Assembly (NCBI GenBank): GCA_964344235.1
Contig: CAYFMJ010000003.1
Location: 16,054 to 80,053 of the forward strand
Source: an uncultured Methanosarcinales archaeon
GTDB lineage: Archaea; Nanobdellota; Nanobdellia; Woesearchaeales; GW2011-AR9
Reading direction: 5' to 3'
Length of the DNA stretch: 64,000 bases
Position 1 is the first letter of the stretch. Each line of letters begins with the position of its first letter. The notes below the pieces were generated by a model. The model was not told where the DNA came from. It searched no databases and saw only the letters and a program-made list of their open reading frames with translations. A program made the translations under genes and the position numbers. Below are positions 41,882-60,697 of the stretch, one piece after another.

Positions 41882-42322
41882 ATGTGTTTTGCCTATGGAA
41901 TTGGAGATACGGTCTTCCGGGGTAGACCAATCGTGGGAGGGGGCACTGCAAACTTCGGAAATGGGAGAGCATTAACAGATATTGATTCTGGAGGAAGAGA
42001 AGCCTTTTTTGATGTTAGAACTTTACAAGATCATGGCGGTTCTGGTGGGGAAGCTGCTGTTGGGAATCTCGTTGTCGTAGCACTGCCATTAGTTGGTGAA
42101 AAAAGAGTTCCGCCACCATCTTTACGCACGCCTAGTACCCACTCTCTTACGATGGGAGTAGATCTTGCTCAGCTGGCAACCGGGAGGAGGACGGGGACTT
42201 CAAGCAGATTGGTCCCTGGAACATTTGATACAACAAGAAGAATTAGTATCATGGATGTAAGACTTCTCACAGTAAGCCCCGAGGAAATGATTCCCGAAGG
42301 CATTGAAATGTTGCTTAGTTAA
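41882..42322 (+). CDS. Hypothetical Gly-rich protein; its 3' end overlaps thrS convergently
   Basis: ORF only; higher local GC. Confidence 0.3.
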   Translation: MCFAYGIGDTVFRGRPIVGGGTANFGNGRALTDIDSGGREAFFDVRTLQDHGGSGGEAAVGNLVVVALPLVGEKRVPPPSLRTPSTHSLTMGVDLAQLATGRRTGTSSRLVPGTFDTTRRISIMDVRLLTVSPEEMIPEGIEMLLS

Positions 42323-44483: not shown

Positions 44484-44592
44484 ATTGTGGTGGGAGTAGA
44501 GAGGAGTTTAAAAAGATAGCGGGGGAAGAAGTGACTACTTTTTAGGGGTTAATTGGGAAAATTTTATAAAATAAGCCCATTTGTAATGTATT

Positions 44593-44856
44593 ATGGTTAA
44601 TAGTTCCGATATCCCTCGAAACGCAATACATGCCTCTGCTAGTCCGGGAGATGTGGTTGAAGTTCTCTTTCAAACACCTGATGGAATGGAGAGGTTTTAT
44701 TTCACAGAAGAAGGTTTAGTCAACCCTTTTGGAGCAGCATATCCTCACACTGGAACTCCAACCATTTCATTAGATGGAGTTGTTGTAGAAGGTGATGGCA
44801 GGGAATATCATTCCGGGGAGGAAGGATTTCACTTGCAGAGTATATCGCTTATATAA
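44593..44856 (+). CDS. Hypothetical protein ending 2 nt before the island's left repeat cluster
   Basis: ORF only. Composition resembles the fragmentary ORF at the island's right flank. Confidence 0.35.
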   Translation: MVNSSDIPRNAIHASASPGDVVEVLFQTPDGMERFYFTEEGLVNPFGAAYPHTGTPTISLDGVVVEGDGREYHSGEEGFHLQSISLI

Positions 44857-44977
44857 ATTTTTCGTTACTTATGAGTGAAAAAAGTCACGAATCCCCAAAA
44901 ATTCGTTTTTCATTACTTTAAGTGGTTACAGAGTGCCGAGATTTTCGTTACTTTTTTGCCAAAAAGAGGTGAAAAAG

Positions 44978-45298
44978 ATGACTGACACGACCAAATTGTA
45001 CCATGAATTGCTAGAAAAGAGCGTATATGCGGTTCTCAGGGGAAACCTGCAGCGAAATGGCCTTCTGATGGAAGAAACAGATCAGACTGTCAAAATTATA
45101 GGGAATTCTAGAATTTCTATTATCCCCAAAGCGGAGATAATTGTTATAGACCTAGATAAGGAAGGGGCAGATATTACGCCAGAACAACAGACAGAGCTGC
45201 AGAAGATCAAAGCCTATCTTGAAGAGAAAAATAGGGCTACCAGGGAGAAAATAAAGGGGGATAATGAACCCCAATTTTCACTTAATAACTCAAGTTAA
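44978..45298 (+). CDS. Hypothetical protein, first gene of the island
   Basis: ATG at 44978 follows GAGGTG. The track start (GTG at 44933) lies inside the boundary motif. Confidence 0.4.
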   Translation: MTDTTKLYHELLEKSVYAVLRGNLQRNGLLMEETDQTVKIIGNSRISIIPKAEIIVIDLDKEGADITPEQQTELQKIKAYLEEKNRATREKIKGDNEPQFSLNNSS

Positions 45299-45517
45299 TA
45301 CAATTTCAGGACTAAACGGTATGTAGTCGGATTTTGCGGTTACATATCAAAAAGAGGTGGTAAAGGAGGCTTCAACAATAGATTTGAGGCTAAAAAAAAG
45401 AGCATTTTGTGGAGCATTTTGCTCAACTTGTCTTGAAAATTAACAAAAATTCACAACACCATCAAGGCTCGCTGAGAAATATGAAGTTGAGTTATTAACA
45501 AAAAAGAGGTATCAAAT

Positions 45518-45820
45518 GTGGGTAAACCAAAGAAGTATGATGTAAGAAGTATCAATTTTGGCGAAGTAGGCCATCCAGCCAGGATATTAGTAGATAAATT
45601 CGTTAGTTTGCATGGAAAAACTGCACTTTCTCGCTTAATTAGACGTCTAGTGATGATCTATCTTATGGAAAAGCCAGAGTATAGAGATTGGAAGGCTCAG
45701 AAGCTCATCTATGAGAGAAAAGAGCTAGGAAAGAAAGTTGCTCAGATCTTGGAAAGAAGGAGAAAGGTGGACGAAGAATTGAGAGACCTTGGAGTGAATC
45801 CAGATGAACTGATTTACTGA
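45518..45820 (+). CDS. Small basic protein, possible DNA-binding
   Basis: GTG start after GAGGT; Lys/Arg-rich helical C-terminus. Confidence 0.35.
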   Translation: MGKPKKYDVRSINFGEVGHPARILVDKFVSLHGKTALSRLIRRLVMIYLMEKPEYRDWKAQKLIYERKELGKKVAQILERRRKVDEELRDLGVNPDELIY

Positions 45821-45982
45821 AAATGAAGGGGCTAAAACGATTCAAATGTGGGCACTGCTCAAGGAAATACACGGGCCTGAATAAATGGATCTTCAAGCAT
45901 TTGGAGAAAAAACATCCTGACAAACCACCAAGGGCGCGTGCAATTGACCTAAAATTTAGGTATCATCACGGAGGATAGAACA

Positions 45983-46390
45983 ATGAAGGAAGATGAAAAA
46001 ATAAAACAAGATTTCAACCAGAGAGTTCCAATCAATTTAGTTGACGAGCTTCTAATACTACCAGGAGACATGAAGTCTAAAGAGAATAAGATTCAAGCTA
46101 TAAAATTCAAAATAGCAGACCTTAAGAAAAAAGTTGAGAAGTGGGAGTTAAATGAACTAGAGAAAATTTATCTTCAGGTTGGCAGTGATGGAAAAAGAGT
46201 TTATTCTAATGAGAAGCTAAGGGAAGCAGAACTAGAGCGAAGAAAAGATGCTTCTCCTGAGATTAAGAAATTATACGCAGAATTGTATGAGAATGAAATC
46301 AAGCTAGAATCTGAATTAATCGAATTTCGATATATGGATCGCAGATATAGTGCACTTAGAAACATTGCTAACATATTTTGTACTAGATAA
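45983..46390 (+). CDS. Coiled-coil protein
   Basis: Heptad-rich K/E sequence. Confidence 0.35.
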   Translation: MKEDEKIKQDFNQRVPINLVDELLILPGDMKSKENKIQAIKFKIADLKKKVEKWELNELEKIYLQVGSDGKRVYSNEKLREAELERRKDASPEIKKLYAELYENEIKLESELIEFRYMDRRYSALRNIANIFCTR

Positions 46391-46392
46391 AA

Positions 46393-47748
46393 ATGGAAAA
46401 CGAATCAATCAAAAGCATGAGGATAGAGAAGTTGAGCATAAGTTCTATTACTCCGGCCAATTATAATCCTAGAAAGATAAGTCCAGATGAACTTAACAAG
46501 TTAAGGAATAGCATACAGAAGTTTGGTTATGTTGAACCTATAATCTACAATAAGAGAACAGGGAAAATAGTTGGGGGACATCAAAGATTCAAGATACTTA
46601 AAGAAATTCTTGCTCCTGAAGAGCTCGTAGATGTTGTTATTGTTGATTTGGATGAGAATGAAGAAAAAACCCTTAACGTTGCGCTGAATAGAATTGGTGG
46701 AGAGTGGGATGACAATAAGTTATCAGAATTACTAAAGAATATTCACGATAATGAAGAAGACCTGCTAGAATTTACTGGGTTTAATGATAAAGAAATTGAA
46801 CTCCTTTTGAATCAATTAGAATACGAAGACATATCCAAGGAAGAGAGATTTTTTTCCATCAATAGGGAAGACATCAAAGAATCAAAAATAAAGACAGGGG
46901 ACATAGTTGTTCTAAATGATAAGCACAAAATAATTTGCGGCGATTCTTCTGATTCTTCAATATTCAAAAAATTATTTGTTAATAGAAAATTTGATTTAAT
47001 GGTGACTAGTCCGCCATATAATGTAAACATTGCTTATGGTAAATATAAAGATAACAAGAAATGGAATGAATACATTGACTTGATAAAAAAGATTTTTGAT
47101 AATTCTAAACAATTCTTGAACGATTACAGATTTTTATGCATCAATATTGGTGATATGACGAAGAACAATTTATCTGCTCATTATAGCATAATATTGGAGA
47201 ATCTTGATTACAAATACTGTAAAACAATCTATTGGGTCAAACCTTCTGCCTCAGCAAGAGGAACAAATGTATTGAAAACTCCCTATCCGCGATGGTATAG
47301 GCCAAAGGTCAACACGGAAACAATCTTGGTTTATGAATTTGGAGAAAAAGAACCAGAGATAGCTAATGTGATGTTGACATACTCAAAAGGAGAACTAACT
47401 TCTAAAACTAAGCCGGACAAAGGAGAAGCACAGGTAATTAGCAAGAGGTTGCTGAAACAATTTTTGACTAATGTTTGGTACATGCAACCTGAGACTACGC
47501 TCAGCAGAGATCATCCCGCACCTTATCCTGTTCAGTTACCTCTTAATTGTCTTAAGTTTTTCAGTTTGGAGAACGAAAGGGTATTTGATCCTTTTACTGG
47601 AAGCGGAACTAGTTTGCTAGCAGCCGATCTTCTTGGACGGGAATTTTACGGTATAGAGTTAGATCCAAAATATGTTCAGTTGGTGATTGAGCGATATAAG
47701 AGGTATAAACCTGAATCAAAGATTGAGATAATAAAAAATGAAAATTGA
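46393..47748 (+). CDS. ParB-like nuclease domain fused to a beta-class N6-adenine/N4-cytosine DNA methyltransferase
   Basis: N-terminal ParB box (IVGGHQRF); MTase motif IV SPPY before motif I FDPFTGSGTS (beta-class order). Confidence 0.75.
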   Translation: MENESIKSMRIEKLSISSITPANYNPRKISPDELNKLRNSIQKFGYVEPIIYNKRTGKIVGGHQRFKILKEILAPEELVDVVIVDLDENEEKTLNVALNRIGGEWDDNKLSELLKNIHDNEEDLLEFTGFNDKEIELLLNQLEYEDISKEERFFSINREDIKESKIKTGDIVVLNDKHKIICGDSSDSSIFKKLFVNRKFDLMVTSPPYNVNIAYGKYKDNKKWNEYIDLIKKIFDNSKQFLNDYRFLCINIGDMTKNNLSAHYSIILENLDYKYCKTIYWVKPSASARGTNVLKTPYPRWYRPKVNTETILVYEFGEKEPEIANVMLTYSKGELTSKTKPDKGEAQVISKRLLKQFLTNVWYMQPETTLSRDHPAPYPVQLPLNCLKFFSLENERVFDPFTGSGTSLLAADLLGREFYGIELDPKYVQLVIERYKRYKPESKIEIIKNEN

Positions 47749-48481
47749 AGAAGGAGATTTAGTTTATTTGGATAAGCACAGGCTTTTATGTGGAAATAGT
47801 TTGAAGTATTCAGTATTAAAAAAGTTACTTGGTGACAAAAAAGTTTCTATGTTGTTTACGGATCCACCTTATAATATAAGTTATGTTCCGGAAGATAGAC
47901 CAATTGGGGGCCGGAGAAGGTCAAAAAATAAACTTGGCGGGATTATTGGTGATACTAACTTTGATTTTAATAAATTTTTCAAGATTCTTGAGATTGGTTT
48001 TATAAAAGGAGCCATCTACGTTTGTGGGAGCACAAAGAACTACTGCGATGTTTACAAATGGATGACTAATTTCTTTGACAGAGAACCGATTGTAATTGTT
48101 TGGAACAAGAATAACTACAGCATTGGAAGAAGAGATTATCATAGACAACACGAATTTCTATTTTACTCTTGGTTTAAAGAAAAGGTTTGGAATGGTGACA
48201 AGGAAAGAAATCAGTCTGATGTTTGGAATGTTAAAAGAGTTCCATCAACAAAATACATTCATCCTACTCAGAAACCAGTTATCTTAGTTAAGAAAGCTAT
48301 TTTGAACAGCAGCAACAAAGGGGAGATTGTTCTAGATTTATTTGGCGGTAGCGGAAGCACTTTGATAGCAGCTGAATCGTCTGGAAGGATATGTTATACT
48401 GTCGAATTGGATCCTCATTATTGCGAGAAGATGGTAGAGCGATGGGAAGCATTTACTGGAAAAAAAGCGGTTAAGGTCTGA
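47738..48481 (+). CDS. Beta-class N6-adenine/N4-cytosine DNA methyltransferase (second, tandem copy)
   Basis: Motif IV DPPY (LFTDPPYNI) then motif I DLFGGSGST. Its N-terminus parallels the MTase half of the preceding gene. Confidence 0.75.
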   Translation: MKIEEGDLVYLDKHRLLCGNSLKYSVLKKLLGDKKVSMLFTDPPYNISYVPEDRPIGGRRRSKNKLGGIIGDTNFDFNKFFKILEIGFIKGAIYVCGSTKNYCDVYKWMTNFFDREPIVIVWNKNNYSIGRRDYHRQHEFLFYSWFKEKVWNGDKERNQSDVWNVKRVPSTKYIHPTQKPVILVKKAILNSSNKGEIVLDLFGGSGSTLIAAESSGRICYTVELDPHYCEKMVERWEAFTGKKAVKV

Positions 48482-48483
48482 AA

Positions 48484-48816
48484 ATGATTGAATCTTATTT
48501 GAGAAAGCAAGAGAAGTGGGAGGAAACATCCACTGTTGAAGGGATGGATGCTTTAGAAGGAGAAACTATCACAAAAATTATTCCCTTAGATAAAGACAAG
48601 TATATGATTTTAATGAAAAGTGGGGCTAGTTGCGTTGTTCACACAGCTGGATCATTTACGATTTATACAAAAGAAAAGACAACTAAGATACTGCAAGAAG
48701 TAACTGCCAAAAGTAAGAATTTCAGCATAATTCATTCAAGGGCTAAACTAGCTTTAGATCAGTTGGCACAAGAAAACCAACAGAAGAACGAACAGAATAA
48801 AACGGGGGCTGAATAA
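48484..48816 (+). CDS. Hypothetical protein
   Basis: ORF with tight spacing. Confidence 0.4.
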   Translation: MIESYLRKQEKWEETSTVEGMDALEGETITKIIPLDKDKYMILMKSGASCVVHTAGSFTIYTKEKTTKILQEVTAKSKNFSIIHSRAKLALDQLAQENQQKNEQNKTGAE

Positions 48817-48819
48817 AAG

Positions 48820-51792
48820 ATGGGTGTTTTTAGAGGAGTTAAATATGAGCTTTCGGATGAGGACAGAGTACTTGGCGGAAAGAGTAGAAGCCCAGCAAAA
48901 ATAGCAGCTGCTAAAGTCAATGCTTTAAAGCATGGAAAATCATCTAAGGACCCCACAATAAAAGAAGCAATTACTCCTACATCTAAAGAGAAAGCACTAG
49001 GAATTACGACTTCTGATAAAATCAAGCAGCTTAAGAGATTAAACCCTTTATTTGCAAGTGAAAATAGATTCAATTATTTATATGGGGTTCAGGAGTTCTT
49101 AGGGGAATTACTAGTTTCTGCATTGAGAAAGAAAAAGGAAGGTAAGTCAACAGATTATGAATATAGGCAACTTACTAGATTGAGTTTAGAGTTGTTTGAT
49201 AGATTCTATGGCAAGCCAGATACTATTGTGAATGTACAGCAAAATTTGGAAGTTACGGAAAGTGTTTTACTTACTCCTACGGCTGCACCTGTAGCAGCAA
49301 AAGGATTAATCTACTTTGACAGCACAGCCAATAAGATCAAAGTTTCGGAAGATGGAGCTACGTTTGTAGATCTTGGTGGAGATGTTACAGAAGTAATTGC
49401 TGGTTCTGGATTGACGGGCGGAGGAACTGGTGGAAGTATTACTCTTGATATAGGTTCAAGTACTGGGATAATAGTTAATGCTAATGATATTGCCGTTGAT
49501 GTTGGTACAGGACCAAACCAAATTGTCCAGTTAGATGGGACTTCCAAACTTCCCGCAGTGGATGGAAGTCAATTAACAAACTTACCTTCAACGCCAGGGG
49601 AAACAACAACTGGCGTTAATAGAGAACTTAAGCAACAAATTGAGGTAGTAGAATTATTAGAGGTTAGTAGTTTAACATCTTTAGTTGGTGTTAGTGAAGA
49701 TATAATTGTTGAAACATTCTCTGACGCTGATGGATTTAACAATTTAGTTAATGTTAGTAATACGGATGCTACTCATGATTTGCCTAGCAAAAGATACAAA
49801 GCAGAATTTGTTGCTGGCGGTGGTGGTTTAATCATTGATGATTTTGACAGAGCCGATAGTGCTACCGTAGGAAACGGCTGGACTGAAGTTGAAACAACAG
49901 GAAGTACATGGTCAATAGTAAGTAACAGAGTTAAATGTGATTATGAAGGAAGCAGTGATCCAAATATTCATAAAAATATTGGAAATCAGCCAGCATTTGA
50001 TATCAAGGTTAAGTGGGAATCTACAAATGTTAATATAACAAGGCCCTCTTTAGCGGTAAATGGTGATGGAATCGCACCACAAAATGGTTTATCGATGAGG
50101 GCTACTTCTAGTAGTGGTTTTGGAATTACAAGAAATGGAAGTGTACTTGCTTCTACATCTTTCACTTTCTTAGACAACACTGAGTATTTCTATAGACTAC
50201 AGTGGAACGGCTCTACTTTGAAAGGAAAAGTATGGAAAGCAACAGATGCAGAACCTGGAAGTTTTCAACTAAGTACAAGCACCACTACGGTTACGGACAA
50301 TGAAGTTACTTTATCCTGTATAGCAAATGCAAGTGGTTCTGAGGATGTGTTCTTTGAAGATTTACAATTCGTAGGAGAAACAATAGAAACGATTGATGAT
50401 TTTAATAGAGCAAACTCTGCTACTGTCGGCAATGGATGGACAGAGGATGAAGGTTTTGGGACATGGCAAATTCTTTCAAATAAAGTAAGAGGAGAAAGGA
50501 CATCGGATGGGAAAGTGACTATGTTTAAAACACTGGGTAATAAAAGTAGTATGATTCTTAAATCAAAGGTTAATCGTACAACGACAGTCGCTACTCTCAA
50601 TTTCAGAATGGGATTTAATTCTACTTCCGGAGATGTTAATGCAAGTGGATTAACTCTCCTTGTTGAAGATAGTGGGTCTATTTTAAGTCTATTAAGAGAA
50701 GGTGTAAGTTTAGCTAGTACCACTTTCACAGTTGATGAGAGTACAGATTATTTTATGCAATTATCTTGGGACGGTTCAACGTTCAAAGGAAAAATCTGGA
50801 AAACTTCTGAAAGCGAGCCATCTGGTTACCAACTCTCCGCAAGTACTACAAATTCAACTGGAGATAAAATTGGATTCACTATCAGTGGTGGTGGACCTGC
50901 AACTGGAACAATTGATTGGGATGATGTGGAGATTCCTGCCAATACTGGACTTGCCGCAACCATAGATGACTTTAACAGGGCCAATTCAACAACAATTGGA
51001 AATGGATGGACAGAAGATGTGGGAAACTGGGAAATTTCTGGTAATGAACTAAAGGGGCCAGTTGATAACAGCAATCCGCGAATTACTAAAGACATAGGAA
51101 ATAGAGGGACATTTAACGTAAAAGCAAAGATTAGAAGAGAAGATACTAGTTTTAGATTTAGCATGGAGATCAACAATACAACTCCTAATTTATCTACTGG
51201 AATGAAAATTGCATATGATGATAGTACTTTTAGCATTGGTAGAGCCGCTACAGGACTTGCATCTACACCTCTTTCTTTTCCAGCAAACACAGACCATTTT
51301 ATGAGATTGCAGTTTGATGGAACTGATTTGAAAGGAACCCTCTGGGACGCTTCCGGAGCTGAACCAAGTCCTCAACTTTCTGCAACTACTACAAACACAT
51401 CTGGGACAGGTATCTTACTTCGTAATGATAAAGCTGGAGGAGGCATTGGTCTATCACAGTTTTGGGATGAAATAATCGATGAGAGTATTACTGGCACTGG
51501 ACCGGGGATAACAGAAAGAAAAGTAGAATTAGATTTACCAACTATAAGCGGAACAGTCACTGATACTCAACTTGCTTCCCGATTTAATTTGGAAACTGGA
51601 AATGAAATTAAGTATGAATTGGAAGATGCAAGTGCTAACAAAGATACCGACTTAGCATTTGATACCAAGAATACTCTCACAAATCTTGTATCAAACCCAA
51701 CAAAGTTAAGGATATTGTTAAAACGAGGAACAGGTGGTTCAGTTGACGAACCAAATGTTAAATCAATAGCAATGAGATTATTCAAATCATAA
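48820..51792 (+). CDS. Large tail-fibre-like repeat protein (990 aa)
   Basis: The segment GSGLTGGGTGGSITLDIG...IVQLDGTSKLPAVDGSQLTNLPS resembles the phage tail-fibre / chlorovirus glycoprotein repeat. It is followed by three ~200-aa tandem repeats (IDDF[DN]RA[DN]S.T[VI]GNGWTE... G[ST].[LF]KGK[VI]W...EP...LS.ST). Confidence 0.6.
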   Translation: MGVFRGVKYELSDEDRVLGGKSRSPAKIAAAKVNALKHGKSSKDPTIKEAITPTSKEKALGITTSDKIKQLKRLNPLFASENRFNYLYGVQEFLGELLVSALRKKKEGKSTDYEYRQLTRLSLELFDRFYGKPDTIVNVQQNLEVTESVLLTPTAAPVAAKGLIYFDSTANKIKVSEDGATFVDLGGDVTEVIAGSGLTGGGTGGSITLDIGSSTGIIVNANDIAVDVGTGPNQIVQLDGTSKLPAVDGSQLTNLPSTPGETTTGVNRELKQQIEVVELLEVSSLTSLVGVSEDIIVETFSDADGFNNLVNVSNTDATHDLPSKRYKAEFVAGGGGLIIDDFDRADSATVGNGWTEVETTGSTWSIVSNRVKCDYEGSSDPNIHKNIGNQPAFDIKVKWESTNVNITRPSLAVNGDGIAPQNGLSMRATSSSGFGITRNGSVLASTSFTFLDNTEYFYRLQWNGSTLKGKVWKATDAEPGSFQLSTSTTTVTDNEVTLSCIANASGSEDVFFEDLQFVGETIETIDDFNRANSATVGNGWTEDEGFGTWQILSNKVRGERTSDGKVTMFKTLGNKSSMILKSKVNRTTTVATLNFRMGFNSTSGDVNASGLTLLVEDSGSILSLLREGVSLASTTFTVDESTDYFMQLSWDGSTFKGKIWKTSESEPSGYQLSASTTNSTGDKIGFTISGGGPATGTIDWDDVEIPANTGLAATIDDFNRANSTTIGNGWTEDVGNWEISGNELKGPVDNSNPRITKDIGNRGTFNVKAKIRREDTSFRFSMEINNTTPNLSTGMKIAYDDSTFSIGRAATGLASTPLSFPANTDHFMRLQFDGTDLKGTLWDASGAEPSPQLSATTTNTSGTGILLRNDKAGGGIGLSQFWDEIIDESITGTGPGITERKVELDLPTISGTVTDTQLASRFNLETGNEIKYELEDASANKDTDLAFDTKNTLTNLVSNPTKLRILLKRGTGGSVDEPNVKSIAMRLFKS

Positions 51793-51807
51793 TGGAGGTA
51801 GATAATA

Positions 51808-52086
51808 ATGGCAGATAGATGGTTTAGAGTACCACAAATTGGAGCTGGAACGACAGCTGATCCATTTAGACCTGAAACAAATGGATTGAATCAATGGGCT
51901 AGTGCTGGACAATACGGAGACAACGACTTTCTCGTACGAGTTTATGGGACCACGGCAGAACTTGACGCTTTAGCACTAGTGACTGGAGTAACTGAAGTGA
52001 CAGCAACATTTGATACTGAATACAATACTCTATGGACTACAAGTTTAGGCAAACCCGACATTGAGGCAAAAGTTTTTGCTGCTTAA
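51808..52086 (+). CDS. Hypothetical protein
   Basis: ORF 16 nt after the big gene. Confidence 0.4.
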   Translation: MADRWFRVPQIGAGTTADPFRPETNGLNQWASAGQYGDNDFLVRVYGTTAELDALALVTGVTEVTATFDTEYNTLWTTSLGKPDIEAKVFAA

Positions 52087-52191
52087 GAATGGATCTGTTC
52101 AAATGGTTACAAGAAATAAAGCGGAACACATACTTTCATTTGAAAGAACTAATCGAGAAACTCCACAAAAAATACTTCCAAGAAGTATGGA

Positions 52192-52491
52192 TTGAAGTTG
52201 GACACAATGGTAACAGATACTGGAAAAATAAACGGTAATGTCATCAGAATGGCTGAATTTAAAGGAGAAGTTCTTGCTACTTTGAGGTATCTTAAGGAAC
52301 AGCAACGCGAACATAGAGATGAAGTAAAAACAGGATTTAAAGAACAAAGCGAGGATATTAAGAAAATTTCACGAAACTTGGAAAAGCATCTTAAAAAGTC
52401 AGCTATTCAGAAATGGGTAACTGGTTCAATAGTAGTATGGTTAAGTGCCCTTACTGGTGTTCTTGTTAAAATATTTGTACTTGGAGGTTGA
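52192..52491 (+). CDS. Small protein with a C-terminal TM helix (holin-like topology)
   Basis: Charged N-terminus and a hydrophobic C-terminus. An alternative 50-aa ORF at 52089-52238 overlaps. Confidence 0.3.
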   Translation: MKLDTMVTDTGKINGNVIRMAEFKGEVLATLRYLKEQQREHRDEVKTGFKEQSEDIKKISRNLEKHLKKSAIQKWVTGSIVVWLSALTGVLVKIFVLGG

Positions 52492-52493
52492 AA

Positions 52494-52661
52494 ATGAAAA
52501 AAGACTGGTGGAAATCACGGATGATTTGGATTAATGTTCTAGTTACAGTTAGTGGTATTGCAACTGCTCTTGCAGATCATTTGACAGCAGGAGGAGCATT
52601 GACGGGAATAGGAGTTGTTAATATTGTATTAAGAGTCCTTACAAAACAACCAGTGAAGTAA
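52494..52661 (+). CDS. Small 2-TM membrane protein (55 aa)
   Basis: Manual translation MKKDWWKSRMIWINVLVTVSGIATALADHLTAGGALTGIGVVNIVLRVLTKQPVK. Confidence 0.3.
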   Translation: MKKDWWKSRMIWINVLVTVSGIATALADHLTAGGALTGIGVVNIVLRVLTKQPVK

Positions 52662-52768
52662 TTATTTTTATAAATCTCTTTTCACACAGAAGCCTATACC
52701 ACCTCTTTTTCCCTATTTGGAGTCGAATCCCTACTCCATCAATCTGGCGAGGGAAAGTAGCGCCAGAT

Positions 52769-53224
52769 TTAGGGTTTTTTTAATCGTTCTCCCACATCCT
52801 TCCTTAACGTAGAAACATACAATTTCAATTGCACTTCAACTTCTCGCCATTCTTTATCTGTGATTGACTTTCCTTCATAATGTGTTCTGTTTCTCATAAA
52901 ACGGACTTTCTCAAAGAAATTCCAATCTAATTCTAGTTCAGGAAACTTAACACAGATATATGCAAAACATCCCTGATGGTTACTACATTTGACTTTTTGC
53001 AGGCGAAGCAGAATGTCACACAATTCCCTTAGTGAATCATAATAAAGAAGAAAAATTACACGCCAGTTAATGACTTTCTTAGTAATAAGGGTTTCTGCAA
53101 ACTGTACATTATCAGCAGCAATATCGTACATTCTTTGAAGAGCAAGTTCATCTATATCTTTTTCTCTATACTCTCCTGCTACTGTTACTTTATCATAAAT
53201 TTCTTCAGCTGTCTTTTCAGGCAT
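52769..53224 (-). CDS. HEPN-domain protein (HepT-like toxin)
   Basis: RNRTHYEG is an Rx4-6H-type motif near the C-terminus of a ~150-aa helical protein. Overlaps the MNT gene by 8 nt. Confidence 0.55.
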   Translation of the reverse strand: MPEKTAEEIYDKVTVAGEYREKDIDELALQRMYDIAADNVQFAETLITKKVINWRVIFLLYYDSLRELCDILLRLQKVKCSNHQGCFAYICVKFPELELDWNFFEKVRFMRNRTHYEGKSITDKEWREVEVQLKLYVSTLRKDVGERLKKP

Positions 53225-53759
53225 GAATGCTCACCGTAAATGGTTCTATTTTTCCTTTAACATGTATTCCTGCAAGGATATTAGGTATAACATTCTCAAT
53301 CCTTTTTAATTTTTGCGGGTCTTCGTATTCAAAAAGTTGAATTTCCCTCTTAAAAATGCGTTCAAACTTTCCTTGTTCAAATTCATCAGCATTACCATAG
53401 ATAAATAGATCAATATCACTCTCATAATCCCAATCAGCTCTAGCAAAACTGCCAAAAATAATGACTGTTTTGGCCTTGGGTAAGGAACTGAGGTGTTCTA
53501 AAAATCCTGTCTTTTCAAATTGCTGGAAAGCATAGAGCCTTTTCTCCATCTTGAATTTTACATTTGTGTAGTTAGCAATATAATATGGCATTTTGCCTTT
53601 AGGTCTAAATTTTTTTATGAGCTCTTCCTTAGTTAATTTTTTAAGCCATTTATTGGTGCTAGTTCTACTTAATCCAGACTTCTTTACAAGGTCGTCAAAG
53701 TGCCAGTGCTTCGTTGAATAATTGAAGAATAGCTCTTTAATATTCTCTTTTTGTCTCAT
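53217..53759 (-). CDS. Minimal nucleotidyltransferase (MntA-like) with an N-terminal HTH
   Basis: GSFARADWDYESDIDLFI = GS.AR.....SDIDL signature. Confidence 0.65.
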   Translation of the reverse strand: MRQKENIKELFFNYSTKHWHFDDLVKKSGLSRTSTNKWLKKLTKEELIKKFRPKGKMPYYIANYTNVKFKMEKRLYAFQQFEKTGFLEHLSSLPKAKTVIIFGSFARADWDYESDIDLFIYGNADEFEQGKFERIFKREIQLFEYEDPQKLKRIENVIPNILAGIHVKGKIEPFTVSIHA

Positions 53760-53873
53760 ATTTTAGTACATATATGTGTACTACTTTATAAAGTTTTTGT
53801 TCCTAAATCGCTGTAGTTGTACCTCAGAATAAGTAACAAGCTTTTTAAATGAGCTAAATTATAACAAAATAAA

Positions 53874-55937
53874 ATGAAGTTTACAAGGAATTTATCGGAA
53901 TTGGACAAGGATGATGTCTCATTAGCGGGAGGAAAAGGGGCATCATTAGGAGAAATGATTAAAGCAGGTATCCCTGTGCCAGGCGGATTTGTTGTTCTCT
54001 CTACGGCATTTGAGGATTTTATCGAAAAAACAGATTTAAACGTAGAAATTGACTCTATTTTACATTCTGTTGATCTTAAGAAAATGCATACCATTGAAGA
54101 GGCATCAGAAAAAATTAATGCTCTTATTCTTAATGCAAAGATTCCAAATGAGATAGTGAGAGAAATAAAAGAATTATTCAAAAAAATGGGAGCCTCATTT
54201 GTTGCAGTTCGTTCTAGTGCTACTGCTGAAGACAGCTCAACAGCTGCATGGGCTGGTCAATTAGAGACCTATCTTAATACTACTGAAGAAAATCTTATTG
54301 AGAATATTAAAAAGTGTTGGGCTTCACTGTTTACACCAAGAGCAATATTCTATCGCTTCGAAAAAGACCTGCATAAGCAAAGAATTTCTGTTGCTGTTGT
54401 TGTGCAGAAAATGATTCAAAGTGATGTTTCGGGAATAGCATTCTCGGTTCACCCCGTTACTGAAGACAGGAATCAACTTATTATAGAAGCAGGATATGGC
54501 TTAGGTGAAGCAATTGTTTCTGGTTCTATAACTCCTGATAGTTATGTAGCCGAAAAAGAACCACTGAAGATTCTTGATAAAAACGTGTATGCTCAAGAAA
54601 AATCACTTGTCAAATCAGAAGAAGGTGGTACAGAATGGAAAGAAGTTGCTCAGGCAGATGTTGAAAAGCAAAAATTAACAGATAATCAGGTACTTGAGCT
54701 TACAAAAATCATAATCAACATTGAGGATCATTATGGATTTCCTGTTGATGTTGAATGGGCTTTAGAAAATGGAAAATTCTACCTAACGCAATCTAGACCA
54801 ATTACCACACTTTCAGCGGATACAGGATCTAAGGAAAAATTTTCAGGAGTTCCCGATATTGCAAACGATGATCTTCAGTATCTTCTTGAGCGAAATGAAC
54901 TTTACTTTGTATCTTCTATTTTAGCAGGCGGGTTTTGTGGTGAAGAAAATGTAAAGAAAATATTTGACATTTCTCCTCCAGCGGGAATAGTTCAACGCAA
55001 TGATGACTTTTTCTTAATTAAATCAACATTGATACCATTTACAAAAAAACTGAAAGAGAAAATAAAACAAGAGGGTTATGTAAGAAGAATTATTGAAGAA
55101 TGTCATCAAGCTGGAGCGCAATTACAGGCAGAACTCAAAGAGATTGGAGAGAGGGCTGCAAAAGTAAGAACAAAAGAAGAGATAGCAAGGTTATTAGAAG
55201 AATTTTTTGAAAAAGCAAAAACCTATTGTTCTTTTTATCCAATTGCCCTTTTTGAGAAACCAATGACTGAATTTGCAGAAAAAATTGCTAAGAAATACAC
55301 TAAGGATGACAATGAGATGCAAGAGATTTTTAACTTAATAACAACTCCAAGTCATACTACAGAAGCTGATAAAGAAAGAGATGATTTTCTAAAGTTATGT
55401 GCTCTTGCAGACAAAGGTGAAGATATAAGTCACTTGGCAGAAGAACATGCAAGAAAATATGGTTGGATAGCAATTAGATATCTCAGAGGAAATTTATGGA
55501 AGAAAGAAGATATCCTAAAAAGAGTTGCAGAAGCTGACCTTACCCTTGCAGAACAAGAACTCAAATCAAGGAAAAAACATAGAAAAGGAGTAGAAGAAAA
55601 GTTGCAAGAATTCATTAAAAAAGTGTCAAATGAAGATAAAGAAAGAATTCAACAAATAAGAGAAATTGTGTACTTACGAACACAACGGGCTGAGTATTTA
55701 GACATGTCAACACAGTATATAATTGGATTTCTACATAGGGTTAATGACGAGTTGGGTTTAGACTATGAGGACATGCTTCAATGTAATCTGCGTGAAATTG
55801 TCGATATGCTAACCACTGGTATTAATTTAAAAGAAGAAATTGCAGCTAGGCATAAGGAGCTGCTTGTTTTTCATAATGCTGGAGGGGTTTGTCTTTCTGG
55901 AGAAGATGCTGAGGAGTATATGGAGCTTCTGGATTAA
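53874..55937 (+). CDS. PEP synthase / pyruvate-phosphate dikinase N-terminal (ATP-grasp, PPDK_N) domain protein with a long all-helical C-terminal region; no phospho-His or PEP-utilising domains recognised
   Basis: The N-terminal ~310 aa match PPDK_N blocks (LAGGKGASLGEM, VAVRSSATAEDS, FPVDVEWAL). The C-terminal ~370 aa are K/E-rich helices. Confidence 0.6.
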   Translation: MKFTRNLSELDKDDVSLAGGKGASLGEMIKAGIPVPGGFVVLSTAFEDFIEKTDLNVEIDSILHSVDLKKMHTIEEASEKINALILNAKIPNEIVREIKELFKKMGASFVAVRSSATAEDSSTAAWAGQLETYLNTTEENLIENIKKCWASLFTPRAIFYRFEKDLHKQRISVAVVVQKMIQSDVSGIAFSVHPVTEDRNQLIIEAGYGLGEAIVSGSITPDSYVAEKEPLKILDKNVYAQEKSLVKSEEGGTEWKEVAQADVEKQKLTDNQVLELTKIIINIEDHYGFPVDVEWALENGKFYLTQSRPITTLSADTGSKEKFSGVPDIANDDLQYLLERNELYFVSSILAGGFCGEENVKKIFDISPPAGIVQRNDDFFLIKSTLIPFTKKLKEKIKQEGYVRRIIEECHQAGAQLQAELKEIGERAAKVRTKEEIARLLEEFFEKAKTYCSFYPIALFEKPMTEFAEKIAKKYTKDDNEMQEIFNLITTPSHTTEADKERDDFLKLCALADKGEDISHLAEEHARKYGWIAIRYLRGNLWKKEDILKRVAEADLTLAEQELKSRKKHRKGVEEKLQEFIKKVSNEDKERIQQIREIVYLRTQRAEYLDMSTQYIIGFLHRVNDELGLDYEDMLQCNLREIVDMLTTGINLKEEIAARHKELLVFHNAGGVCLSGEDAEEYMELLD

Positions 55938-56130
55938 GACATTTCACTAACCTTTTCTTTCTTAGTTCTCCAAGTGTTACAGATACTTTTACTAATTGTA
56001 TCTTAAGAGATTTACTGATTTCTGTAGGCGTTATGGGCTCTTCGTATTCATCCAAAATATTCAGCACTTTCTTCCTGCGATAACCTCTTCGTAGCCACGC
56101 CACCAAACGGTAATCAATAGATAAGTCCAT
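55846..56130 (-). CDS. Winged-helix DNA-binding protein
   Basis: The PITPTEISKSLKIQLVKVSVTLGELRKKRLVK helix-turn-helix pattern. Its 3' end converges on and overlaps the preceding gene by ~90 nt. Confidence 0.35.
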   Translation of the reverse strand: MDLSIDYRLVAWLRRGYRRKKVLNILDEYEEPITPTEISKSLKIQLVKVSVTLGELRKKRLVKCLNPEAPYTPQHLLQKDKPLQHYEKQAAPYA

Positions 56131-56212
56131 AGAAAGAACAGGTATCCTATCGGATAAAAGACAGGTTTACCGTTAGATATAACTATTTAACAAGGGCAAC
56201 TTATTTAAAGAA

Positions 56213-56473
56213 ATGAGAAAACAAAAACTAACGAGGTGGTTATTTATGGAAGAAAATAAATTTATGAATAAAGAGGATCTAAGCAAGCTAGCTAAAGAAG
56301 TTGTGAAAATTTTGAAGAATGACGAAGAGTATGCTCAATTTGTTGGTAGCGAAGTTCAAGATTATCTTGAAAAAACTAAAATACGAGAACATATTAATGA
56401 AATTGATGAACTAAAAAAAGAATTTAAACAATTATTATCTGAAGTAAAAGGCAAAGCTAGACAAGAACCATGA
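56213..56473 (+). CDS. Hypothetical small protein
   Basis: ORF only. Confidence 0.3.
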   Translation: MRKQKLTRWLFMEENKFMNKEDLSKLAKEVVKILKNDEEYAQFVGSEVQDYLEKTKIREHINEIDELKKEFKQLLSEVKGKARQEP

Positions 56474-56998
56474 TTTTTACTTCTTTCTTTTCATATACTG
56501 ATTAATGAATCTTTCTAGTACTGTCCAGACTTTTTCTCTTCTTTTCTTGACTTCATGAGTAAAATCAATCCATTTATCTCTATTCCCTCGGAAGGACAAT
56601 GAATCATCCTCGGACGAACCCTTTTTTTTTGCCATGTGGTACAATGCTATTGTCTTACTATATAAATATTTACATTAATTTAGGGCAATCTTTATATATC
56701 TCCTATGTCCCACAGTGACAAAGTGCTACAAATAAAAAAGTACGTAAATGGAAGAAATTTAGGCTTATTTATCCCAAAAAAGAGAAATATAGTATTATTC
56801 TCTCAGAAAGGGATAAGGATAAGTGAAAATTGTACCATGTTAGTGGTGAAAAAGGCAACACAATATCAACCATGCCGTAATCCTAGTTTAAAGGGGGCGG
56901 TATGTGATAGCAAGAGCCCCAACATCTGTTTTTACTTGTTGGGTAGTTAAGAGTTGGAGCTGTGCCTGCTGTCTCCAAAAAAAATGGAGGTGGTAGGT

Positions 56999-57850
56999 AT
57001 GCTACCAAATAGAATAAGGTATGTGAAAATGGGTAAATCAACCCTAGCGAAAAAAATAACGGAAGAGGAATTGCAGACATTCTTTGACGCAATTCCAAGA
57101 GTGACAAAAAGGAGCACGTATTGGCTCACATTGTTTATGACTCTAAGCGATGCTGGGCTTAGAGCAGGTGAGGCAGTGAGATTGAAAATAAATGATATCC
57201 ATCAGGAGAAGAATATCATTACAGTACACCAGCAAAAGAATGGCGTAGATCATGAAGATACGCCTTTTACTCAAAGGTTGAGAGAACAACTCAACAAATT
57301 TATTGCCTTATATCATAAACAAATCAAAGAGAGTGGGGACTATATGTTCTTCACTCAATATACAGTTAGGGGTCAAGATGTTATAGGCGAGGGTGAGCAC
57401 ATTAAGACTTCTAATTTACGAAAGATGTTCAATAAAGTAAGGGCTGAAGCAGCCACTGTCATGCCAAGCATAGGAAGAGCTTATACAAAGAGGACAACAA
57501 AAGACGTTACCAATGGTAATGCTCCATGTAAGGCACTTGGCAGGCCTCTGATGGTAATTACGCCCCACACTTTAAGACATCGCTTTATACAGCGAATAGC
57601 GGACCAGGAGGGACTCTTTAAGGCCCAACAGTGCGCTAGACACCTACATTTTTCTTCTACCTTAGTCTATGCAAAAAAGAGCATGAAAGCAAAAGTTGAA
57701 GCAATAAACAACACGTTTGATTCCGAGAAGAAGGACCAAGCAGAAGAGATTAATGAATTAAAAGAACAGGTTGCAAGCCTTACAAAAATGCTTCAGGATA
57801 ATATGAATATTCTGAAGTTCATTAAGGGGGTGAATGGAGGAAATGAATAA
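56999..57850 (+). CDS. int: Tyrosine recombinase / phage-type integrase
   Basis: Catalytic residues in GLRAGEAV (R), HTLRHRFI (H..R) and LVYAKKS (Y). ATG at 56999 after GGAGGTGG; the track start at 56954 is TTG. Confidence 0.75.
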   Translation: MLPNRIRYVKMGKSTLAKKITEEELQTFFDAIPRVTKRSTYWLTLFMTLSDAGLRAGEAVRLKINDIHQEKNIITVHQQKNGVDHEDTPFTQRLREQLNKFIALYHKQIKESGDYMFFTQYTVRGQDVIGEGEHIKTSNLRKMFNKVRAEAATVMPSIGRAYTKRTTKDVTNGNAPCKALGRPLMVITPHTLRHRFIQRIADQEGLFKAQQCARHLHFSSTLVYAKKSMKAKVEAINNTFDSEKKDQAEEINELKEQVASLTKMLQDNMNILKFIKGVNGGNE

Positions 57851-58118
57851 GCAAGAAACCAAATATCTCTTAGAAGTTTACAAAGATTGTCTAAAACTTG
57901 AAAGGCAGAACCAATTAACAGAGCATGGTGCTGGAATGGGCGAATTAGCTTCTATTCTTCTCAAGAAGCACAGAGAATTCAAGCATCTGAAAGAAAGGGA
58001 GAAATTGAAATGCCTATCTTGTAAGAAGGCTTATTGGGTATCTAATGAAGAGAGATGCGTTTTTTGCGATTCAAAAAAGGTAGTGAAGGCAAATGCCCCT
58101 CTACCAGTTAAACACTAA
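57834..58118 (+). CDS. Small zinc-ribbon protein (CLSCKK...CVFCDSKK)
   Basis: C-x2-C...C-x2-C motif. Confidence 0.4.
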   Translation: MEEMNKQETKYLLEVYKDCLKLERQNQLTEHGAGMGELASILLKKHREFKHLKEREKLKCLSCKKAYWVSNEERCVFCDSKKVVKANAPLPVKH

Positions 58119-58134
58119 CTTGGAGGTAATACCA

Positions 58135-58440
58135 ATGAAAGAAAACAAAAAACTAGCCGTAGGCATAAAAAAGGACTTTACTAAGAAGAAATCCGGAAGA
58201 AAAAGAGTATCACACAGGGAAGTGTGTTATAGAATTCTAAAGGAGAGAGGTAAGCCAATGCATTACAAAAAAATAACGGAAGAAGTTCTAAAGGAATGTA
58301 AGTCAGTAGGTAAGACTCCGCAAAATACAATGTATGCTAGAATGTTAACAGACAAGAAAAGATTCAAACTTCTTGGCAAGGGAAAGTTTGCTCTCTTAGA
58401 ATGGGAAAACAAAGCGAAGGTGATTAAGAATGCCAAATGA
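58135..58440 (+). CDS. Winged-helix (Mrr_N/HARE-HTH-like) small DNA-binding protein
   Basis: VSHREVCYRILKERGKPMHYKKITEEVLK pattern; ATG at 58135 after GGAGGT. Confidence 0.35.
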   Translation: MKENKKLAVGIKKDFTKKKSGRKRVSHREVCYRILKERGKPMHYKKITEEVLKECKSVGKTPQNTMYARMLTDKKRFKLLGKGKFALLEWENKAKVIKNAK

Positions 58441-58786
58441 AATTGGAATTGTATCTAAAGTCAAACCACGGGACAAAACTTACAGTGTTGCAGTAAACAA
58501 ACAATGGTTTGGTGGTTTCGGTAAGTGTCCTGTACTTGAAGGAGAAACAGTGAAAATTGAATGGAAGCAGAAAGGTGACTTTAAGAATATATTAAAAATA
58601 GAGAAAGTAGAACCTGTATTTCAAGATGAGCTACAACAAGCTCCTGAAATTGATTCTAGGATCAATGATATAAGGCTTCAGGTTTGTGTAAAAGCTGCAG
58701 CCGGAGTGTTTGCAGGAACAAAAATCAACCCATCAGAAATTGCTGAGTATTCAAGGAACTTGTTTAAGGAATTGTGGGGGAAGTAA
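58430..58786 (+). CDS. Hypothetical protein
   Basis: ORF overlapping its neighbours by a few nt. Confidence 0.35.
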   Translation: MPNEIGIVSKVKPRDKTYSVAVNKQWFGGFGKCPVLEGETVKIEWKQKGDFKNILKIEKVEPVFQDELQQAPEIDSRINDIRLQVCVKAAAGVFAGTKINPSEIAEYSRNLFKELWGK

Positions 58787-58787
58787 T

Positions 58788-58970
58788 ATGACTAAAGCAA
58801 CAGAAGAGCTAACAAATGAGAAACAAGACAGCATAAAATTAAGCAAGAATTCAAAGGGTTATGTCTGGGAAATCAAACGATATTACGATTTCTCAAAGAC
58901 AAAGCCAGAAGATGTAATTAAACAGCTTGGAGAGATAGATAAAGAGCTTAAAGAGAAATTTGGAGGTTGA
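58788..58970 (+). CDS. Hypothetical small protein
   Basis: ATG immediately follows the previous stop. Confidence 0.3.
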   Translation: MTKATEELTNEKQDSIKLSKNSKGYVWEIKRYYDFSKTKPEDVIKQLGEIDKELKEKFGG

Positions 58971-58976
58971 ATTATC

Positions 58977-59234
58977 ATGAGTGAATGGTTTAAGAAAAAG
59001 TTTCCTGGGCTTACTAGTGAAGTTGGAGAAGTGACTCAGAGAGAGTGGAAGGAGGCAAAGAAAGCTTACTTAGAATGGAAGAAACAGGAAATGTTGTCTC
59101 CGGAGAACATTGAAAAACATTGTCTTGATAAAGAGCTGGTAAGGAAAGCAGTGGGAAAATTAATTTTATTGAATCAAGAGGATCCAAAATTAAGAAAGTG
59201 GTACAATGTTATCACAAAAGAACTGGGCCTTTGA
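58977..59234 (+). CDS. Hypothetical small protein
   Basis: ORF only. Confidence 0.3.
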   Translation: MSEWFKKKFPGLTSEVGEVTQREWKEAKKAYLEWKKQEMLSPENIEKHCLDKELVRKAVGKLILLNQEDPKLRKWYNVITKELGL

Positions 59235-59403
59235 GAGCAAAAATGCGGAAACCGAAAAGCATAAATAGATGTACTACTTTACTCATTCTAGACATGCACT
59301 TAAAATTAAGTGTGTGTAAAAAGTAACGAAACACCACAAAAAAAGTAACGAAAACTGAAAAATGCCAAGCGTAACGGAAATGTGGGAACTCGTGAATTCT
59401 TAA

Positions 59404-59997
59404 GCAACGGAAATAGGCAATTATCGTGACTTTTTGAGTTTACCAATAATTCAAGGAGAACTTCGTATAAATATTGATGGGCGTTTTTTAGCAAGTCCCG
59501 ACAATGATTTCTTAGCTGTAATAAGGGATGATGATTAGAGAGTTGGTTGCTTATATGGCCAGGGAAGTAGGTTTTTTCGAGCTGGAGATTTTGGAAACCA
59601 AGAAGCTGCAAGAAGATATTTACAGGAGTTAGAACCCGAAGTCGCCAGGTTTTTTGGTTATGGAAGAAGGTTACCATGGCAAGTTAAAAAATTGAGAGAT
59701 TTGTCTCAAGGAAAGGATCTGCCACATGACCCCAAGATGGATGGTGGGAGTGATGTTGTTAGAAGAGAAACTATCGATACACTACTTCTAACCACAATTA
59801 TTTTTGAGACGGAGCCAGGGAAGAGTGCTTTTGCTACAGTTTATGCAACTCCCGCACCTCTTGAGCAAGGAGTAGTTGACAGAGGGTGTTTATATCTTGA
59901 CGTAGCACAGATATCTGACCCGGGAGGCATGCACATGCCTGCAGCTTCTGTATTTGAACGAAAGGCCAGGAGAAGGTGTATAAGAGAAGTGTGGTAA
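59404..59997 (+). pseudogene. Gene remnant at the island's right flank: one frame is open from 59404 to 59997 but is interrupted by an in-frame TAG at 59536-59538 and has no ATG (the track ORF 59692-59997 begins at TTG)
   Basis: Manual frame tracing. Composition resembles the left-flank ORF 44593-44856. Confidence 0.3.
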
Positions 59998-60037
59998 TGA
60001 GCATACATTTTTAAATCTTGAGAATCTCTTTAGAATC

Positions 60038-60697
60038 ATGCCAAAAAAGAGGTCTAAAGAAACTATTGTGGTGATGAGTGCCCACACAGATGATTTTGTA
60101 ATAGGGGCAGGTGGAACTATTCTAAATTATTTGAAAGAGGGGAAAGAAGTGATTGCCGTTGTTTTCTCATTAGGAGAAAAGTCGCATCCCTGGTTAAAAG
60201 ATGGTGTGATTAAAGATATTCGAAAGAAGGAAACGTTTGATGCGTTAAATATTATGCCCTGTAAGATTCGTTTTTTAGATTTAGGTGATCAAGCTATTTA
60301 CAAAGATTTTACAAAGCAGAAAAAAGTAAGAGAAAAATTGCAGAAAGTATTTGATAAAAAACCAACGAAAATTTTTACACATAGTAGTGAAGATCCCCAT
60401 CCAGATCACCGGGCGGTACACAAGATAACATTAGAGATGTATGAGAAGCTTAATGGGAAAAAAAAGCCAGAGGTGTATATTTACTCTGTTTGGAATCCAG
60501 TATCGTTTAAAACACAATTTCCATCGTTATATGTTAATGTGACGAAGACGTTTTTCAAGAAATTAAAAGCGTTAAAGACGTTTGAAAGTCAGAAATTTGC
60601 AGTTGTTTACCCAACGTTCTTACTGATGTGGCGGGCGTTTAAGGATGGGTTCAAAATCCGAACGTGGTTTGGGGAGCATTTTTTTAGGATAAAATGA
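60038..60697 (+). CDS. PIG-L/LmbE-family N-acetylglucosaminyl deacetylase
   Basis: SAHTDDFVIGAGGT (H.DD...G.GG) and HPDH zinc-site motifs. Confidence 0.7.
   Translation: MPKKRSKETIVVMSAHTDDFVIGAGGTILNYLKEGKEVIAVVFSLGEKSHPWLKDGVIKDIRKKETFDALNIMPCKIRFLDLGDQAIYKDFTKQKKVREKLQKVFDKKPTKIFTHSSEDPHPDHRAVHKITLEMYEKLNGKKKPEVYIYSVWNPVSFKTQFPSLYVNVTKTFFKKLKALKTFESQKFAVVYPTFLLMWRAFKDGFKIRTWFGEHFFRIK

Follow-up and report, generated by a model that had tools for sequence, protein, structure and literature searches.

What is the role of a protein that joins a phage tail-fibre motif to three tandem repeats when it is encoded on archaeal DNA with no recognizable capsid gene nearby? The question arose from a window of 64,000 nucleotides (nt) assigned to an uncultured Methanosarcinales archaeon and placed by GTDB in the Woesearchaeales (assembly GCA_964344235.1, contig CAYFMJ010000003.1, positions 16,054 to 80,053), in which an original prediction, made from the letters alone, had described an open reading frame (ORF) at 48820-51792 as encoding a receptor- or carbohydrate-binding protein of 990 amino acids (aa). 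These coordinates proved exact, with an ATG start on the plus strand, and since the 990 codons run without a stop at 37-39% GC, chance was excluded as the origin of the 2.97-kb frame. From the N to the C terminus, the protein is composed of a unique region, a fibre repeat, a neck, three concanavalin A (ConA)-like modules, and a small beta domain (Table 1). It contains 2 Cys, and an identical protein (P0001) is found in 2 contigs only. No full-length homologue was present among 5.8 billion proteins, no close whole-protein relative was found in GTDB representative genomes or in IMG/VR, and a PDB sequence search with the entire protein gave no match.

With a confidence a little better than even, we regard this gene product as a modular, fibre-type protein for attachment, viral in origin and not secreted, that resides on an integrase-bearing island of a Woesearchaeota-like DPANN archaeon. 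This reading is preferred because of the lectin-type fold, the fibre-motif homology, the virus-like gene arrays around the short relatives, the occurrence of the module in viral contigs, the absence of an export signal, and the island context.

The tandem modules: fold, function, and age

AlphaFold2 (AF2) models were obtained for repeat 1 and for the C-terminal domain, both as monomers. The model of repeat 1, for which a 50-sequence family alignment (A2) served as input, reached a predicted local distance difference test (pLDDT) score of 95.3 and a predicted template modelling (TM) score of 0.91, and it consists of 15 strands with no helix. When this model was compared with the PDB using Foldseek, 210 chains were matched at E<=1e-3, and the top ones all have the ConA-like fold. 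The best matches, with TM scores of 0.55-0.68, include legume and other L-type lectins, ERGIC-53, VIP36, Emp46/47, the GH16 beta-glucanase 1gbg (TM 0.65), CBM66, and, from sialidase BT_1020, its carbohydrate-binding part, at sequence identities of 7-16% (7-13% to the L-type lectins). The repeat unit is thus modelled as a two-sheet ConA-like jelly roll of ~185 aa, the same architecture as in L-type lectins, GH16, and CBM66, and the jelly-roll lectin fold that had been anticipated for a single unit was indeed recovered.

The presence of a GH16 glucanase among the best structural matches raises the question of whether the protein could be an enzyme rather than a binder, namely, a GH16-like glucanase or a depolymerase that cuts surface polysaccharide, and phage tail spikes often carry depolymerases. 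We judge this very improbable. Lectins and carbohydrate-binding modules match the model as well as or better than GH16, the GH16 catalytic motif ExDxxE is absent from all 990 aa, no Pfam glycoside hydrolase was matched, and the family-conserved D, F, R, G, and W at the first strand differ from the GH16 catalytic set.

Among predicted viral structures (BFVD), the module matched minor tail proteins from phages of Arthrobacter and Streptomyces, DUF7257 proteins from those of Gordonia and Rhodococcus, one tail spike-like protein, one tail fibre protein, one Cellulophaga phage structural protein, and proteins of the archaeal viruses PFV1, SPV2, HGTV-1, and HHTV-1. Judged by its model, the module belongs to a type of ConA-like jelly roll often found on virion tail proteins. 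DUF7257 (PF23918) and the matched actinophage tail proteins (Arthrobacter GurgleFerb, Streptomyces KimJongPhill, Gordonia GTE5 and BritBrat, Rhodococcus Finch and ReqiPepy6) share this jelly roll by structure (E 1e-7 to 2e-5, TM up to 0.75), and DUF7257 has the same N-terminal 'DDF.R....G..W' strand as the 990-aa protein. The actinophage proteins carry a single copy of the module and come from bacterial tailed phages, whereas the 990-aa protein has three copies and lies on an archaeal island. At the level of sequence, DUF7257 was matched with 25.9 bits (E 9e-6), below the 27-bit gathering cut-off, and the match spans aa 334-370, that is, profile positions 24-61 of 239 or the first strand only, which does not make the protein a member of the family. 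Single repeats gave no score against the DUF7257 profile, and 5 of the 50 family members reach E<=0.01. A weak PHROGs match was obtained at aa 524-569 to phrog_2804 'virion structural protein', plus one to another family.

A profile built from the three units detected 841 proteins at E<=1e-3 among 1.84 billion cluster representatives (clusters at the 50% identity level), and these proteins vary in size, from ~210 aa where the module stands alone to >3000 aa in secreted giants. The lectin module was also found in 6 IMG/VR contigs in a search with two peptide patterns only. Given these viral contigs and the phage structures, homologues are not confined to cellular S-layer or adhesin proteins, which had been named as an outcome that would speak against the prediction. 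A word-indexed homology search with the repeat profile returned 3 weak matches only, and the module profile gave nothing but noise, with no lectin match, against PDB sequences. Among 50,697 phage genomes, no tblastn match was found for the lectin repeats, the N-terminal 157 aa, the C-terminal 100 aa, or the proteins of 92, 99, and 57 aa encoded downstream.

Pairwise BLASTP aligned the three units over their full length, with E values of 1e-30 to 3e-36 and ~41% identity, and so bore out the tandem arrangement that had been proposed. The motif IDDF[DN]RA[DN]S[AT]T[VI]GNGWTE, predicted to open every unit, is found once in each, at aa 339, 525, and 715, and nowhere else. Starts had been placed near 337, 533, and 730, so the second and third are 8 and 15 residues earlier than proposed, and the unit length is 186-190 aa (about 188) rather than ~200. 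A second predicted motif with KGK[VI]WK is found in units 1 and 2, but unit 3 reads DGTDLKGTLWD.

Near-identity between units had also suggested a recent internal duplication. Such near-identity exists but does not extend beyond the first ~18 residues; along their full length, the units show 36-41% protein identity and 48-53% DNA identity (aligned codons), and DNA-level similarity between them is detectable in the first 62 nt only. At positions where the residue is identical between units, third-codon bases agree in 48-49% of cases, and synonymous sites are close to saturated. With ~40% identity and nearly saturated synonymous sites, the triplication is therefore old and not recent. When 50 family members were placed in a neighbour-joining tree, the three units grouped as a single clade in which units 2 and 3 are sisters, which indicates that the duplication occurred within this lineage, long ago. 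Head-to-tail copies of the module, two or three in number, are also present in P0178 (three copies, aa 284-807), P0197, P0223, P0250, and P0144; expansion of the module therefore happened more than once.

A fibre repeat and a constant frame

Residues 1 to ~158 showed no relative in any search, and IMG/VR matches begin at aa 159 or later. The first 135 residues may anchor the protein to a particle or to a partner. The following fibre element contains, at aa ~170-258, the pattern AGxGLTGG..TL.VDVGT.ANQIVQLD...LPAVDGSQLTNLP; the string AGSGLTGG...QLTNLPS, quoted in the original prediction for residues ~150-250, is located at aa 194-257 (nt 49399-49590). The ~48-aa repeat occurs in 119 other proteins, singly or in long tandem arrays, and some of these carry Peptidase_S74 (the endosialidase chaperone) or phage tail Collar plus Gp10_C at the end. 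Three matches that had looked like necks (P0015, P0024, P0049) were in fact additional fibre repeats.

Across 33-36 aa, the core of the repeat is 64-76% identical to the annotated tail fibres of two podophages and to one tailed-virus protein, and the region was detected in at least 38 IMG/VR contigs in a scan with a few exact peptides. The podophage proteins are Pelagibacter phage HTVC309P gp39 and Puniceispirillum phage HMO-2011 gp43, which share with the 990-aa protein a ~33-aa core ...NQIVQLD...LPAVDGSQLTNL..., and the same core is found in a protein, annotated as hypothetical, of the Methanomicrobiales-associated Caudoviricetes sp. vir555. Sequence elements of annotated tail fibres are thus present near the N terminus, as predicted. 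The likeness is limited to the core, beyond which nothing in these proteins aligns with the 990-aa protein. The motif lies near the C terminus of the podophage proteins (~aa 987 of 1185 and aa 546 of 593) but near the N terminus here, and the genes of HTVC309P, HMO-2011, and vir555 are all in tail gene clusters, whereas the 990-aa gene is not. A likeness to the 34-residue Chlorovirus glycoprotein repeat (PF06598), which had been proposed as well, was not recovered, since aa 158-337 gave no Pfam match even at E<=10; a sub-threshold PF06598 match was seen solely in another protein, P0003, in a region that was not compared with the shared motif.

Between the fibre element and the first module lies the neck, which consists of a helix-like ELKQQIEVVELLE... 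followed by ETFSDADGF...KRYKAEF. Together with the C-terminal domain, it recurs in three short proteins, P0141 (401 aa, in L002), P0193 (400 aa, in L003/L004), and L080:287-1300 (338 aa). The neck matched P0193 by BLAST with E 2e-4, and the C-terminal domain is 43-59% identical to those of P0141 and L080:287-1300 and 24% identical to that of P0193. AF2 modelled this domain with six strands (pLDDT 81), and it had no significant neighbour among PDB structures (best E 0.04). A word-indexed search with the C-terminal profile returned nothing, and the 990-aa protein gave no match to the C-terminal S74 chaperone (PF13884) by which tail fibres may also be recognized.

P0141 and P0193 hold one lectin-type module between neck and C terminus, while L080:287-1300 holds an unrelated central domain there; all three lack the first ~260 residues of the 990-aa protein, that is, the unique region and the fibre repeat. 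Neck and C terminus are therefore the constant frame of a rare family of 340-400 aa with an exchangeable middle domain, a pattern expected of receptor-binding proteins, and within this frame the 990-aa protein has three lectin-type modules as its middle, the result of an old expansion.

The relatives sit in one-directional arrays of genes without Pfam matches. In L003 (8174-11203), genes for a 606-aa protein and for P0193 are consecutive and both encode the lectin-type module; the 606-aa protein has a weak PHROG 'virion structural protein' match, and downstream of P0193 come a protein weakly matched to phrog_2234 'tail spike' (E 5e-7) and then a transglutaminase-like protein. The transglutaminase-core protein of L003 could be a lysin. 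In L080, downstream of the related gene lie genes for a protein judged by eye to resemble transglutaminases (no PHROG match) and, further on, for a 93-aa coiled-coil protein with a C-terminal membrane segment. A small P-loop ATPase is encoded upstream of the relative in L002. These gene contexts look viral, but only weakly so.

The island and the competing readings

In the related genomes L005 and L007, thrS adjoins the PIG-L/GT4 genes, whereas in the window the two are 15.5 kb apart. The intervening DNA is thus an insertion, and it encodes an integrase, the combination looked for in an integrative element. L005 and L007 have their own, differing fillers of 0.6-1.2 kb at the same position, so that the site looks like an insertion hot spot. 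The flanking genes are archaeal (threonyl-tRNA synthetase [ThrRS], Lhr helicase), and the ThrRS of the window is 64-69% identical to those of Woesearchaeota-type metagenome-assembled genomes (MAGs), which identifies the host as a DPANN archaeon. Features of the protein and the island are collected in Table 1.

Table 1. Features of the 990-aa protein, of the island, and of its flanks (positions in the window)
Feature	Position	Strand	Remarks
990-aa ORF plus stop	48820..51792	+	ATG start; identical protein, P0001
N-terminal region	48820..49224	+	aa 1-135; Lys-rich, without homologue
Fibre element	49225..49593	+	aa 136-258; one copy of the ~48-aa repeat, with a 17-aa insertion
Neck	49594..49827	+	aa 259-336; common to P0141, P0193, and L080:287-1300; by-eye comparison and BLAST
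Repeat 1, predicted ConA-like jelly-roll module	49828..50385	+	aa 337-522; AF2 pLDDT 95.3, Foldseek against PDB and BFVD
Repeat 2, predicted ConA-like jelly-roll module	50386..50955	+	aa 523-712; 41% identical to repeat 1, E 3e-36
Repeat 3, predicted ConA-like jelly-roll module	50956..51519	+	aa 713-900; most divergent in the KGK/WK motif
C-terminal domain, six-stranded, all-beta	51520..51789	+	aa 901-990; LPTISGTVT...EDASANKDT...NLVSNPT...LFKS
thrS	42315-44483	-	Left flank; archaea-specific editing domain
15.5-kb insertion	44485..60037		tblastn/blastn synteny against related genomes L005 and L007
Ribbon-helix-helix-like small protein and 51-aa C2H2-type zinc-finger-like protein	45518-45978		By eye
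ParB_N-fused N6/N4 DNA methyltransferase (451 aa) and second methyltransferase (247 aa)	46393..48481	+	Directly upstream of the 990-aa gene, same strand
110-aa ORF	48484..48816	+	Ends 3 nt ahead of the 990-aa gene; search for homologues negative
92-aa ORF (MADRWFRVPQIGAGT...)	51808..52086	+	16 nt after the 990-aa gene; GGAGGT 8 nt upstream
Two small membrane proteins, 99 aa and 57 aa	52192..52661	+	Holin-like by architecture only
Overlapping gene pair	52769-53759	-	180-aa NTP_transf_2/Polbeta (MNT-type); 151-aa partner without clear match
687-aa PPDK_N protein	53874-55937		Phosphoenolpyruvate (PEP)/pyruvate-binding ATP-grasp match at aa 16-320 only, E 1e-100
Tyrosine recombinase (Phage_integrase), 298 aa	56954..57850	+	TTG start; PF00589 E 3e-16
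HARE-HTH protein	58093-58440		Pfam match
PIG-L deacetylase and GT4 glycosyltransferase	60038-61836	+	Right flank

If the 990-aa protein is a viral attachment protein, its unique N terminus and the neck/C-terminal frame would dock it to a particle, and the three lectin-type modules would bind surface glycans (S-layer or other glycoconjugates) in a multivalent, low-affinity manner, so that glycan binding on the target cell would be the first step of adsorption. Under this reading the protein is presumably a virion component, may assemble as a trimeric fibre, and probably engages glycans through its modules.

Several observations weigh against this interpretation. No genes for capsid, portal, terminase, tail tube, or baseplate were found in the island or in the window by Pfam and PHROGs searches. 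The 990-aa gene is not encoded within a tail or baseplate module of a virus genome, and, with no capsid, packaging, or tail genes in the window, there is no virion here to which the protein could belong. There is no attachment (att) direct repeat of >10 nt between the island ends and no GC shift between island and host, and PHROG scans of the neighbours of related genes in L002, L003, L074, L075, L077, and L080 gave few and weak matches. Sugar binding is deduced from a fold shared with true lectins at low identity (7-16%). The fibre repeat also occurs in bacterial proteins annotated as 'beta strand repeat-containing' or 'trimeric autotransporter adhesin', and the module is no less common in secreted giant proteins of cells, with signal-like N termini in 57 of 149 module-bearing representatives.

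The last observation touches on the main rival explanation, in which the gene encodes an island-borne surface adhesin of ConA/LamG type that serves the cell and helps the DPANN symbiont to stick to its host cell. Cells of DPANN archaea and of candidate phyla radiation (CPR) bacteria are said to attach by means of concanavalin and LamG surface proteins, and such proteins are also reported from CPR phages and DPANN viruses in groundwater, for which a role in symbiont adhesion has been proposed (PMC11310336). These proteins likewise place a ConA/LamG-type domain on DPANN-linked mobile or viral DNA, although, in a comparison made by description only, they are linked to Altiarchaeota and EX4484-52 rather than to Woesearchaeota-like hosts, and symbiont-host adhesion is proposed for them where we favour virion adsorption (PMC11310336). 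The many giant surface proteins among the signal-bearing representatives and the lack of capsid genes on the island agree with a cellular role. However, the check for a signal or anchor suggested in the original prediction revealed neither: no signal peptide, membrane segment, lipobox-like sequence, or membrane anchor was found anywhere in the 990 aa, which leaves no evident route of export. In addition, the N-terminal part carries a phage fibre repeat, and the closest relatives of the neck and C terminus lie in virus-like arrays and not beside cell-envelope genes. We rate a cell adhesin as unlikely.

The surroundings of the gene bear on a further explanation. The 990-aa gene is packed in an operon-like manner between phage-type methylases upstream and small membrane proteins downstream, an arrangement that counts in favour of the viral attachment reading. 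The methylases matched PF01555 (8e-39 and 6e-24), PF02195, and phrog_498 (8e-92 and 3.5e-65); their genes overlap by 11 nt, and no restriction enzyme was noticed beside them. Downstream, the 92-aa protein resembles a 97-aa protein of L085 (8001-8294), as both begin with MADRWFRVP, but the likeness (35% over 69 aa) is weak and came from 8-mer selection. L085 is a high-GC IMG/VR contig in which the 97-aa gene follows an 846-aa tape-measure-like gene; a large neighbour there, taken by eye for lectin-like ('FDDFDDF...W'), was not matched by the module profile. The 99-aa protein is composed of a coiled coil and a C-terminal transmembrane segment, an architecture that recurs in the 93-aa protein of L080, and the 57-aa protein has one segment above the hydropathy threshold and a second hydrophobic stretch by eye. 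A weak phrog_9415 match was reported for this small membrane pair.

The order of a fibre-like gene and then small membrane proteins is reminiscent of how a caudoviral late operon ends, and the locus might accordingly be the leftover of a degraded tailed provirus that kept the fibre/lysis end, lost head and tail, and has no present function. The small size of the island (15.5 kb), the lack of other structural genes and of att repeats, the host-like GC, and the unrelated cargo in mid-island (MNT-type nucleotidyltransferase, PPDK_N protein) fit such decay. Against it stand the intact 2.97-kb frame at 37% GC with its tight spacing to both neighbours and the good ribosome-binding site on the next gene, which point to maintained expression, as well as the retention of family-conserved residues in all three repeats. 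A functionless remnant appears rather improbable to us on these grounds.

About a dozen small ORFs of the island have no match at all, and divergent capsid proteins may be among them. The island might then be a complete or helper-dependent DPANN virus with unrecognizable capsid genes and with the 990-aa protein as its adsorption fibre, a scenario that we find quite doubtful. Such a virus might be small and spindle-shaped or pleomorphic; its capsid could include the 57-aa two-helix membrane protein or other ORFans, and its fibre would have arisen by grafting the caudoviral fibre repeat and three lectin modules onto the neck/C-terminal frame. In a variant of this scenario, the island would be a satellite whose own receptor-binding protein retargets a helper virus.

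The 180-aa nucleotidyltransferase of the minus-strand pair has a weak N-terminal MarR-like match, and the pair may be a toxin-antitoxin system of HEPN/MNT type, the HEPN part being putative. In the C-terminal 360 aa of the 687-aa protein, no other domain of PEP synthase or pyruvate phosphate dikinase was found. Small helix-turn-helix, ribbon-helix-helix, and zinc-finger proteins such as those listed in Table 1 are typical of archaeal virus and plasmid genomes. No tRNA gene or other Rfam family was detected in the window, and general family scans, which included no dedicated search for a diversity-generating retroelement, revealed no reverse-transcriptase family among the larger ORFs of the island.

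Two observations on thrS concern the lineages in which it occurs. The catalytic and anticodon-binding part of the ThrRS is 40-54% identical to those of many CPR bacteria (Saccharibacteria, Paceibacterota; L013-L072), and an archaeal-type ThrRS may thus be common to two groups of ultrasmall symbionts. Furthermore, several third-party-annotated MAGs labelled 'uncultured Methanosarcinales archaeon' (L007-L011) encode ThrRS proteins 58-64% identical to that of the window, the same level as in Woesearchaeota MAGs, and L007 also has the PIG-L/GT4/thrS order; to judge from these sequences, the taxonomic labels of L007-L011 may be wrong.

An unusual build of a familiar protein kind

It was known before that phage tail proteins can carry lectin-type domains and that DPANN-linked viruses encode ConA/LamG proteins, and DPANN viruses and mobile elements have been catalogued. 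The 990-aa protein is therefore a familiar type of protein with an unusual build, not a new type, and current concepts are unchanged by it. It stands out by its exact build, by a module triplication of old date, by the small family that its neck and C terminus define, and by its Woesearchaeota-like host.

To our knowledge, few attachment proteins of DPANN viruses or mobile elements are known, and none has been studied experimentally. The 990-aa protein provides a concrete, well-folded candidate with three expressible lectin-type modules, and the constant neck/C-terminal frame could help to spot receptor-binding genes in archaeal virus contigs that otherwise defy annotation. The ~185-aa 'DDFNR...GNGW' module is widespread but barely covered by curated families, and with a proper family model of it, phage tail proteins as well as surface proteins of cells would be better annotated.

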